A DNA stretch of 64,000 nt from an uncultured Planctomycetaceae bacterium (GTDB lineage: Bacteria > Planctomycetota > Planctomycetia > Planctomycetales > Planctomycetaceae), in contig CAWFGE010000021.1 in NCBI GenBank assembly GCA_963815195.1, positions 160,001 to 224,000 on the forward strand, written 5' to 3'. How positions within the stretch are numbered: the stretch's first letter is position 1; every line of letters starts with the position of its first letter. Under the pieces are notes generated by a model. It was not told the DNA's origin. It did no database searches and saw nothing but the letters and a program-made list of their open reading frames with translations. Position numbers and translations under genes: made by a program. Below, in pieces: positions 59,010-62,428 of the stretch.

Positions 59010-59063
59010 AGCCCGAAGCGCAAGCGAGGGATTTTCGTTTTTCCCTCGCTTGCGCCTCGGGCT
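59010..59063. repeat. REP-like doublet
   Basis: AGCCCGAAGCGCAAGCGAGGGA / TCCCTCGCTTGCGCCTCGGGCT; arm also at 38122 and 24230. Confidence 0.8.
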
Positions 59064-59089: not shown

Positions 59090-60344
59090 TCAATCCCCTT
59101 CGTATTTTTTGAGGATCACCACGGAGTTGATCCCTAGCATTCCGAACGAGTTGTTCAGAATGTAGCGGACCGGCCCGACTTCGCGGGGTTCGTTGGCGAC
59201 GATGTTTCGGAGCGGACACTTGGGATCCAAGTGATTCAGATTGATTGTAGCGTGTGCGATCCCATCGTCAAACGAAGGCAGATTTCCCAAAAGCTCCAAA
59301 GCCCCGGCGGCGCCCATCGCGTGGCCGATGAAACTCTTGGTGTTGTTGACCACGGCTTTCGTGTCGTCGCCGAAGACTTCGTGGAGAGCCAAGGCCTCTT
59401 CCAAATCGCCCTGCTCGGTGGCGGTGGCGTGGCTGCTGACGATGTCGATTTCGCCCGGCTTCAAATTCGCCCGCCCGAGAGCCAGGCGGATGCACTCCGC
59501 CTGTCGGCCGTGGTGAGGCAGGACGAAATCGTGGGCGTCGGAATTCATCGCATAACCCACGATCTCTCCGTAAATCGTCGCGCCGCGGGCCAAGGCGTCG
59601 GGCAGGCGTTCCAGGGTGCACAGGGCGCCGCCCTCGGCCACGACGATGCCGTTGCGGTCCCGATCGAAAGGCCGGCAGGCTTGGGCGGGATCTTCGTGGC
59701 GGGCCAGGGCCCCCTGGCTTTGAAAGCTCGCAAAAATCCCGAAGGTGTGAATGCTCTCCGAAACACCCCCGGCGATCGCCAGATCGACCTCGCCCAAACG
59801 CAGCATTTGCGCGGCTTGAATGTAACCCGCATTCCCCGCGGCACACGCGGCCCCGATCGTCAAATGGGGGCCGGTGATTTTGAGGCTCAGCGTGATCTCG
59901 CCCGCCGGGTTGTTGGCGACGGTACGGGGGTTGTGGTGATGCGACCAGACTTTGGTGTCGTAGTCGAATTTCGAGATTTCGTAGATTTCGTTTTCGGTCT
60001 CGACGTTGCCGTGCTCGGTGATGCCCACATACACGCCCACGCGGTTTCGCGGGACGGTTTCCCAATCCAGCCCGGCGTGGCGGATGGCTTCGTTCGCGCA
60101 GTATACGCCGATGGACCCGGCCCGCGTGCCCCGGCGGACTTCCTTCCGCTTCTGATAACGAAGTTCATCGAAGTGGCAGACCCCGGCGAGCACCGGCCCC
60201 ATGATAGCGGGTTTCGTACGGGATCACGCCGGACCGCCCCGAGAGCAAAGCCGCCCGGAACTCCGCGAGGTTATTCCCGTTGGGAGCCGTCAGACCGATG
60301 CCCGTGAGGACGATCCGGTCCCGATCAGATGGAGAAGTCTGCAT
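59090..60344 (-). CDS. Beta-ketoacyl-ACP synthase (FabF-like); apparent extra base near 60203
   Basis: RIVLTGIGLTAPNG, GAACAAG, PFDRDRNG, SHATAT, KSFIGHAMG, NNSFG. Confidence 0.88.
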
Positions 60345-60649
60345 CCGTTCTACCGCACGCTCGCCGGACCGCAATGCCGCCCGGCGCGAAAAACGAGGAA
60401 CTGCTTATGAGGGTTGGACTTACGAAAAATGGTTCGGAATGAAGCCGGGAGCGCGAAACTGTGTATTTTAGGAGATTAACCTGTTCCCCACCGGCTCGCA
60501 AGCGGGGGCAAATTCCAATTTCCGGGTTTTCTCTGAAGTTCCGGTCCGAAAGGCTTCCCTTGCCCCGCGGTTTCCGGGGATGAATCCTCGAAAAATCCGG
60601 TCTTGCATTAAAGTTTGGGTTTCGCATAATCCCCGCGTGCCTGGTCAGA

Positions 60650-60685
60650 TTCTCCGCGGCGAAACCGCCGCGGCCCCATTGAAGC
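60650..60685 (+). CRISPR. Solitary type I-G-like CRISPR repeat (single unit, no array or cas genes in window)
   Basis: 36 bp TTCTCCGCGGCGAAACCGCCGCGGCCCCATTGAAGC with CCGCGGCG/CGCCGCGG stem and ATTGAAGC end. Confidence 0.55.
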
Positions 60686-60700
60686 ACGGAATGAGTCCGC

Positions 60701-61597
60701 ATGTGGTGCACGAAGTGTCAAGCGGAGGTGGCGGCGGAAATGGCTCCGGACAACCGCCGGCTGTTATGTGCGAGCTGCGGTTCGCCGGTTCGCACTGTGC
60801 CGCTTTCGCCCACGGAGGACAAAACCCGCCAGGCGCGGGAACTTCTGGAGCGCTGGTCCAAAACCCGCTGGTCCGAACCCGCCGCGGATCCGGCGGATTC
60901 CCTGCGGCTGAATTTCGCGCCCTCGCCGCAAATGTCGAATGAAGGCCCGGCGGCCCGGGTGCCGCCCGGCTCCACATTCCGCGTGGACGATCCCCACCCC
61001 GACCGCGGCACCGCGACCGACGCCGACACGCGGAAGGAAACTCGCCAGGCCGCGGAAGCACCAAAGCCGGCGGCTGCTCGGCAGGAATCTTACAGTCCGC
61101 CCCCGTCGCGGACGCACCATCCGCACGGCGTCTCGGCTCCGCCACCGCATTTTCCTGCCGAGCCTCCGCCCGCGATAGATTTTTCCGACGACATCCCCCG
61201 CAGCACGTCGTCCAAGCTGCAAGCGTTTTGGGGGCAGATGCTGGCCTACGCGGGCGTGTTGGCCCTCACCATCGGGGCGGTGTTCGTGCTCTTGGGATAC
61301 TTCGGCGGCGCCCAATGGCAGTCCTACACGCCCACCGGCTGGCTGGTAACGACCATCGGCCAGATGCTGCTGTTTCTGGGCGTCGTGACGCTGGTTTCCG
61401 GGGGAATGGAGCAAACCACCGAAGAAGTCGCCCGGCGGATTGATCGGCTTGGCCAACGCATCATCCGCATCGAATGGGCCGCGGGAAACCATGTCCTCAA
61501 AGGCCCCAATTTGCCCGCCGAGCAATTCCAGGCAAACGCCGACGGGCAAACCAGCGGCCAAACCGCCGGGCAGAGCGAAACTCAGAAAACGTCTTAA
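60701..61597 (+). CDS. Zinc-ribbon/Pro-rich membrane protein
   Basis: MWCTKC...CASCG, disordered middle, two TMs, coiled coil. Confidence 0.78.
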   Translation: MWCTKCQAEVAAEMAPDNRRLLCASCGSPVRTVPLSPTEDKTRQARELLERWSKTRWSEPAADPADSLRLNFAPSPQMSNEGPAARVPPGSTFRVDDPHPDRGTATDADTRKETRQAAEAPKPAAARQESYSPPPSRTHHPHGVSAPPPHFPAEPPPAIDFSDDIPRSTSSKLQAFWGQMLAYAGVLALTIGAVFVLLGYFGGAQWQSYTPTGWLVTTIGQMLLFLGVVTLVSGGMEQTTEEVARRIDRLGQRIIRIEWAAGNHVLKGPNLPAEQFQANADGQTSGQTAGQSETQKTS

Positions 61598-62268: not shown

Positions 62269-62428
62269 GAAATCCGAAATCCGAAGCACGAAATCCGAAA
62301 AAAAATCCCAATCACTGAAATCCAAAGATCCAAACTTTGCGCGTCGGGTGTGGTAATGAATGGAGGGATTTGTTGGGATATTCGGATTTGGGATTTGTTT
62401 CGGATTTCGGATTTCGTCCTTCGGGTTT
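62269..62428. repeat. Inverted heptamer-repeat element (AAATCCG)n, second copy
   Basis: Shares AAATCCGAAGCACGAAATCCGAAA with 22215. Confidence 0.75.

Follow-up and report, generated by a model that had tools for sequence, protein, structure and literature searches.

A solitary, intact type I-G CRISPR repeat within the 5' leader of an ordinary planctomycete gene

Introduction

In the preprint text of Shangguan et al. (10.1101/2022.08.08.503147), Csb2 cuts the 36-nt type I-G CRISPR repeat 4 nt 3' of the hairpin base, leaving an 8-nt handle, and TTN is cited as the PAM for this type. Another preprint text places the Csb2 cut in its repeat RNA at a distance of 5 nt from the 5' terminus (10.1101/2022.08.19.504415). 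Repeats that stand alone have also been described. The text of Shmakov et al. (10.1101/2023.03.03.530964) judges many solitary repeat units (SRUs) to be spurious, describes ectopic copies as dynamically gained and lost, and presents repeat-like sequences as depleted outside cas loci. According to the text of Camara-Wilpert et al. (PMC10651486), Racrs are solitary repeats that often lie directly after a promoter. The term 'I-G' is absent from the main text of Shmakov et al. and from that of Camara-Wilpert et al. In I-C loci, SRUs are described as producing regulatory guides of the CreA/CreR type, or crlRNAs (preprint text of 10.1101/2024.12.27.630466).

Here we describe a repeat of this kind in the genome of an uncultured Planctomycetaceae bacterium. 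The window, that is, the whole stretch of DNA that was analyzed, is 64 kb long (64,000 nucleotides). It holds a solitary, intact type I-G repeat that lies in sense orientation within the 5' leader of an ordinary planctomycete gene (Table 1).

Results

A complete type I-G repeat precedes the start codon

The unit consists of an 8-bp stem, a 4-nt loop, a CCCC linker and then ATTGAAGC at 60678-60685. It begins 19 nt 3' of a -10-like hexamer and ends 15 nt 5' of ATG 60701. A first-pass annotation, made from the sequence, had described a 36-nt unit with an 8-bp GC stem at this distance from the ATG, downstream of TTGCAT (60603-60608), a 16-nt gap and CATAAT (60625-60630); the anatomy is correct, and the promoter coordinates are borne out by the sequence. 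By the published geometry, Csb2 would be expected to cut at 60678, 23 nt ahead of the ATG, and the proposal that an 8-nt handle would start at 60678 fits the published rule.

Table 1. Coordinates of the repeat unit and of neighboring features in the window
Feature	Positions	Strand	Basis or detail
Weak CRISPR-DR10-like hairpin 5' of the promoter	60550..60586	+	15.1 bits, E 3.1
Promoter-like element of the downstream gene (CCGGTCTTGC ... CATAAT)	60597..60630	+	Motif in orthologous upstream regions
Host-derived leader, -10 box to repeat	60631..60649	+	BLAST similarity to G001 to 60638
Solitary type I-G CRISPR repeat, 36 nt	60650..60685	+	Stem 60654-60661/60666-60673, loop 60662-60665, CCCC 60674-60677
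Equivalent of the 8-nt 5' handle	60678..60685	+	Predicted Csb2 cut 60677/60678, from the published rule
Ancestral host sequence before the start codon, in the spacer's place	60686..60700	+	BLAST similarity to G001 and G003 begins at 60686
Gene for a 298-aa protein	60701..61597	+	Orthologues in the planctomycete family

The hairpin has a predicted energy of -17 kcal/mol (z -3.68), and none of 200 shuffled sequences folded equally well. A covariance model (R1), built on 13 array repeats with the window unit left out, scored 60650-60685 at 50.1 bits (E 8.8e-12); among the matches listed, the live-array repeats of relatives scored 49.8-57.8 bits. This score agrees with the type I-G form that had been attributed to the unit. 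All 19 invariant columns of the repeat alignment (A1) are present, and the top Rfam match is CRISPR-DR16 at 25.6 bits (E 0.0016), which lies under the gathering score of 35. The unit had been reported as the sole copy in a window free of cas genes, and both statements stand: the covariance search of the 64 kb gave no further significant match (under E 1, the one further match is the same palindrome on the opposite strand), and, when the whole genome was searched, nothing on the window's contig matched Cas1, Csb1, Csb2 or either of two Cas6 families. The unit is thus a single near-complete repeat with no partner in its flanks, the only look-alike, at 60550-60586, scoring at chance level.

Chance and mis-assembly were ruled out as the origin of the unit by several measures. 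With a weight matrix the unit scored 45.2 bits, and nothing in the reversed genome reached 14; a fifth-order Markov model predicts 0.0016 occurrences of its 3' 18-mer in the genome; and the covariance score is that given above. In addition, a 227-nt contig from sequencing run X1 is identical to 60497-60723, that is, to the unit and both flanks. Zero differences count against an assembly chimera; since X1 may be the source sample, its agreement bears on mis-assembly alone. In runs X1-X3, contigs folding back over 60653-60687 with 36-39 intervening letters were taken as arrays of other organisms or loci and left unused.

The hairpin at 60550-60586 was considered as a second repeat and rejected: it has no match to the I-G model and aligns colinearly with the sequence of G001. 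Given this colinearity and its E value of 3.1, it is probably chance or host sequence; the patterns by which it is unique outside arrays are post hoc. The hairpin is similar to the 3' portion of the type III-like repeat in this genome.

The repeat family is linked to csb1 and csb2, which were not detected in the host genome

Arrays of the unit's repeat family adjoin csb1/csb2 in relatives. In G012, a family array lies on contig C45 together with csb1; in G022, a family array at 509-513 kb is followed by csb2/csb1 at 519-522 kb; G037 has both family arrays and csb1/csb2 genes; and at locus L070 the array lies 3' of csb1- and csb2-like ORFs, identified by eye. Repeat orientation was taken from loci in which the repeat follows cas genes and a leader (L090, L091, L093, L098). 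By sequence and by hairpin, the unit belongs to this family. It is identical to the 13 array repeats at 23-32 of 36 positions, 32 being the best array repeat found, and to the repeat of this genome's own orphan arrays at 28 of 36. All eight differences from the latter fall in positions 1-18; repeats of the family differ mainly in this 5' half (mean identity 11.7 of 18, compared with 17.1 of 18 in the 3' half). The unit's stem is longer than that of the genome's arrays and includes a compensatory change. Its exact stem variant with a 4-nt loop occurs in three places among 185,579 genomes, and in none of these three with the unit's own loop. Since eight of 36 positions mismatch the genome's own arrays, the donor repeat appears to be absent from the assembly.

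The host genome (G000) comprises 8.87 Mb in 25 contigs and is 94.6% complete. The search for arrays that the first-pass annotation had proposed found three of the repeat family, on contigs C7, C15 and C22, none of them with cas genes; ten of their repeats are identical to each other. The accompanying search for csb1, csb2 and cas8g came back negative in this 94.6% complete assembly. Profile HMMs detected neither csb1 nor csb2 in the host genome, and the same Csb1 and Csb2 profiles matched in three and two, respectively, of five relatives' genomes used as positive controls. A tblastn search of the host genome at E 1e-4 with the ORFs of four I-G loci returned no csb1, csb2 or cas8g among the matches listed. 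By labels taken from a reading of the query ORFs, these matches were genes that belong to other systems (Cas1, Cas2-region, Cas3-helicase and WYL-like) and flanking genes that are unrelated. One Csb2 query gave nothing at E 1. Within the genus, csb1 was found in none of four genomes (85-95% complete). A functional I-G array would comprise at least two repeats with spacers, and csb1, csb2, cas8g and cas3 in the genome; the window has one copy, and this gene set was not found in the host assembly, from which, at 94.6% completeness, an operon could be missing. The CRISPR systems that are resident, two loci with a Myxan-type Cas6 and one type III-like locus, have different repeats. Cross-processing of the unit by the resident Cas6 enzymes (two PF09559 matches and one PF10040 match) was considered and set aside; the arrays of these enzymes have other repeats.

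The promoter motif and the gene are shared with relatives

The product of the downstream gene has an N-terminal CxxC...CxxC, a Pro-rich linker and a C-terminal hydrophobic stretch, as judged from reading its sequence. It has no Pfam match above cut-off, and its neighbors in the Atlas are hypothetical proteins of Planctomycetota. Orthologues were found in 22 of 24 genomes of the same family, and 16 genomes of other families gave one weak match. The order of the fabF-like gene, promoter, 298-aa gene and DUF420 gene is the same in G001, which indicates that the repeat locus is not a mobile element; the genes flanking the repeat are core functions.

The conserved element at 60597-60630 is the host gene's own putative promoter and not a part of the repeat. 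It is near-identical in G001 and G003, and a CGRTCTTGC...(-10) motif, which was drawn after the sequences had been seen, occurs in 13 of 20 orthologous upstream regions (those with a placeable start) compared with 17 of 1000 shuffles. A consensus promoter scanner did not call a promoter at 60597-60630.

Several other features of the neighborhood were noted. Within the window, a frameshift interrupts the divergent fabF-like gene; an X1 contig is one base shorter at 60203, and the break is therefore probably due to faulty assembly, which may also explain other apparent frameshifts in this genome (the cas1 gene on C3 and the HTH gene on C22). The stretch at 60471-60513, upstream of the fabF-like gene (AGGAGATTAACC...GGCTCGCAAGCGG), is well conserved in G001, G002 and G003 and is probably that gene's promoter or operator. 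REP- or MITE-like inverted repeats lie at 59010-59063 and 62270-62428, and the latter is matched by many X1 and X2 contigs. The genome has several families of short dispersed repeats, one of which is found in the G001 leader.

Orthologous leaders lack the repeat, and host sequence resumes exactly at its 3' end

The first-pass annotation had proposed a comparison with the leaders of orthologues. A search with the model found the repeat at none of 22 orthologous loci (the weak out-of-family match being left out of this count), and the comparison thus lends function no support from conservation: promoter motif and gene are retained across orthologues and the repeat is not. Leaders span 62 to 255 nt across the 13 motif-bearing regions (70 nt here, 255 in G001, 152 in G003 and 62-144 in the others), a variation which indicates that the site tolerates insertions. 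No decayed repeat was recognized in the leaders of congeners, which had no model match and whose local scores were reached by 50, 163, 175 and 255 of 300 shuffles.

BLAST similarity to G001 ends at 60638, and similarity to both G001 and G003 restarts at 60686, the first base past the repeat. The junction, as would be expected of the scar of a self-targeting event, thus lies exactly at the repeat's 3' end with host sequence in the place of a spacer. Because the junction is of the repeat/spacer type, the host DNA may once have been captured as a spacer. The bases directly 5' of the junction are ATT in G001 (with TTA one base off) and CAA in G003, both being other species with diverged leaders. 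On the left side, 60631-60667 aligns weakly with the G001 leader, with a score reached by four of 300 shuffles; for G003 this number was 157. A metagenome scan for close relatives with the 298-aa protein gave 93 pattern matches, none a confirmed relative, and scanning with a junction pattern at the level of the genus returned none at all.

Stray repeats of the same family occur elsewhere

The orphan arrays on C7 (38884-39265, L001) and C15 (142238-142634, L002) abut complementary halves of one NOV_C domain (PF13020; profile portions 1-37 and 39-89). Both junctions fall in a short stretch resembling the repeat's 3' end, and IS21-like genes lie near both; this looks like one array that was inserted into a NOV_C gene and split later. 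The third is a mini-array on C22 (183819-184090, L003) between an HTH gene and a gene that we call toxin-like by resemblance, as it has no Pfam match. A mini-array in G001 (L057) lies ahead of the same HTH gene, and seven of nine homologous loci are without repeats. None of the 14 sequences that follow repeats in the three orphan arrays is matched over its full length at another place in the genome. Several stray arrays begin at the repeat's 3' arm.

In G000, G001, G122 (L111), G023 (L095) and G084 (L097), degenerate I-G mini-arrays immediately precede genes of the XRE-HTH type or pairs that are toxin-antitoxin-like, and in G023 a repeat ends 1 nt before an ATG. These mini-arrays could reflect repeated insertion or a regulatory design.

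Full lone copies were found at unrelated loci in G074, G105, G015, G135 and probably G122, and half copies in G143 and G001; except for G122, all these genomes are without a csb1 match. This survey covered 24 genomes chosen for low match counts or for genus membership and gives no family-wide rate. Contig-end matches were excluded from the count, as were L104 (G002, 28 bits), which lies inside a coding sequence and was taken as chance, and L089, which follows cas1 and a leader-like stretch and was taken as a collapsed array. The lone repeat of G122 (C236:9793-9828, L086), a genome with csb1, has an integrase-like gene on one side and a tRNA-like sequence on the other, a position that is probably the edge of an integrated element. 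Five viral loci had the repeat pattern, three of them with a solitary repeat, and a phage donor is thus possible. The viral contigs L134, L137 and L138 carry solitary I-G repeats, one of them right after a major-capsid-like gene; these are candidate type I-G Racrs.

Discussion

Origin of the unit

An exact junction between repeat and spacer at the 3' end of the repeat is the product of joining by Cas1-Cas2. On balance, we favor the view that the unit is an ectopic copy of recent date whose Csb2 site is latent, with no partner enzyme. The absence of the repeat from all 22 orthologous loci, the variable length of the leader, the exact junction, the lack of detectable csb genes and the presence of ectopic repeats in the same genome support this origin, as do the lone copies in relatives without a csb1 match and the gain and loss of ectopic copies described by Shmakov et al. 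A complete I-G repeat would have been copied into the variable leader of a core gene after the split from congeners, with host leader DNA either captured as a spacer or joined to the repeat directly. By one route, a self-derived spacer with its repeat would have recombined back into the targeted locus, the PAM being lost and self-attack ended; by another, Cas1-Cas2 would have linked a broken chromosome end to the repeat. Collapse of an ectopically inserted mini-array would fit the junction less exactly. Most likely, the unit today is inert: it would form a stable hairpin close to the mRNA 5' end, with a Csb2 site that stays latent unless an I-G system returns. Recency would account for its intactness, and ten repeats of the orphan arrays are identical to each other as well. 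Of the three options raised in the first-pass annotation, a relic or ectopic integration thus fits best, and neither a co-opted site nor a decoy finds support, as no csb genes were detected, orthologous loci lack the repeat and there is no guide target.

Several observations nonetheless count against this origin. The unit matches live repeats in intactness, and its stem is extended with a compensatory change; selection could explain this as well as recency does. It lies on the sense strand between promoter and ATG, where a regulator would sit. Neither congener has a TTN PAM immediately ahead of the junction, which leaves the self-targeting step conjectural. The donor is not in the assembly, and an I-G operon could be missing from an assembly that is 94.6% complete. 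Finally, given the depletion of repeat-like sequences outside cas loci, so good a copy in the leader of a core gene is uncommon.

Alternative explanations

One alternative is a co-opted cis-element, at which Csb2 would bind or cut the leader and tie the gene's output to an I-G system that is either resident and unassembled or incoming. The sense orientation in a leader, the geometry of a Csb2 substrate and the retention of every invariant column favor such an element. Predicted cleavage would modestly free the start region (mean unpaired probability rising from 0.48 to 0.59 at 25 C), and repeats stand directly before HTH genes in G000, G001, G122 and G023. However, orthologues lack the repeat, the cognate genes were not found and the 298-aa gene has no known link to defense; we therefore consider this explanation unlikely. 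Slightly less likely again is a Csb2-gated leader, in which the host gene has kept the repeat so that an I-G system cuts or coats the mRNA and alters its output. A stray repeat might instead have been retained independently of CRISPR, for a hairpin that stabilizes the mRNA 5' end. The 8-bp stem, about 20 nt past the -10 box, longer than in the genome's arrays and worth -17 kcal/mol, would serve this purpose, but the 12-nt single-stranded tail is perfect too, which structure alone would not preserve, and orthologues manage without the repeat; such an exaptation seems to us as unlikely as the co-opted cis-element.

It is improbable that the unit is a hybrid, in which a host hairpin gave the 5' half and the repeat only the 3' 18 nt, or that it arose by chance or as an artefact. 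The confinement of all differences from the genome's arrays to positions 1-18, a 13/16 look-alike in the G001 leader, the alignment of the left part of the leader and the stray arrays that start at the 3' arm speak for a hybrid. But the family likewise varies mostly in this half, the G001 look-alike alone was reached by 50 of 300 shuffles, and of about 11,900 non-repeat CCGCGG sites only nine have a partner 8 nt away, which makes a host hairpin of this form an unlikely source. Marginally less credible is a host-encoded, Racr-like decoy, whose processed RNA would sequester Csb2 or Cas7 of a mobile I-G system. The position soon after a promoter and the solitary repeats at three of the five viral loci are in keeping with a decoy, but the locus, colinear in G001 from the fabF-like gene to the DUF420 gene, is not mobile, the promoter is older than the repeat, and the RNA past the handle is the mRNA itself. 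Least probable of all is a regulatory guide, in which the stretch 3' of the handle would direct Cascade to a promoter, as SRU-derived guides do in I-C loci. No TTN-flanked site with a seed of at least 11 was found (two of 12 shuffled guides had some), what stands in for the spacer is ancestral sequence, both pre-ATG and coding, Cascade was not found and the locus lies outside a cas locus.

Significance

As a relic, the ectopic copy captures cleanly how CRISPR repeats come to be seeded into promoters and leaders, where they are the presumed raw material for crlRNA regulators and RNA anti-CRISPRs, and its exact junction makes the route of insertion testable. A unit at which Csb2 did act would be the natural equivalent, on a core gene, of engineered Csy4 switches; the open literature that we searched showed no such natural case, of which supplements of the cited preprints may list examples, and no study of planctomycete I-G repeats. 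A Csb2-gated leader, if real, would mean that CRISPR processing controls a non-defense core gene post-transcriptionally, and the same design would then extend to the repeats that directly precede HTH genes in four genomes of planctomycetes.

Comparison with known systems

The unit is best classed as a solitary repeat unit that belongs to the I-G repeat family, and not as a functional array, a Racr or a crlRNA guide. The Thioalkalivibrio sulfidiphilus repeat, as described in the preprint text (10.1101/2022.08.08.503147), is likewise 36 nt long with a GC hairpin and 4 nt to an 8-nt handle, and the unit shares its family with the repeats beside csb1/csb2 in G012, G022, G037 and L070. In contrast to the T. 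sulfidiphilus system, the unit is single, has no leader or spacer and an 8-bp rather than a 7-bp stem, and its cognate cas genes were not found. With the SRUs in the text of Shmakov et al. (10.1101/2023.03.03.530964), many of them thought to be non-functional by-products, it shares the form of one near-perfect repeat without a downstream partner; those SRUs lie in or beside cas loci, whereas this unit lies in a core-gene leader of a genome with no cognate cas genes detected. Like the Racrs in the text of Camara-Wilpert et al. (PMC10651486), it is a solitary repeat soon after a promoter, the motif ending 19 nt before it, but this is the host gene's own promoter. Racrs are small RNAs of phages and plasmids, and this unit belongs to the mRNA of a syntenic chromosomal locus, with flanks that are colinear in G001 and encode core functions. 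The crlRNAs CreA/CreR and the CRISIS SRUs, in the preprint text of 10.1101/2024.12.27.630466, also have one repeat followed by unique sequence; unlike them, the unit is outside a cas operon, is not conserved among relatives and has no PAM-flanked partial target (no site with a seed of at least 11, for the TTN PAM only). Finally, in the engineered Csy4/Cas6f sites in mRNA leaders (PMC4604432), a CRISPR hairpin makes an mRNA a nuclease substrate. Those sites are synthetic and of type I-F, whereas the unit described here is natural, of type I-G, and a predicted substrate should Csb2 be present.
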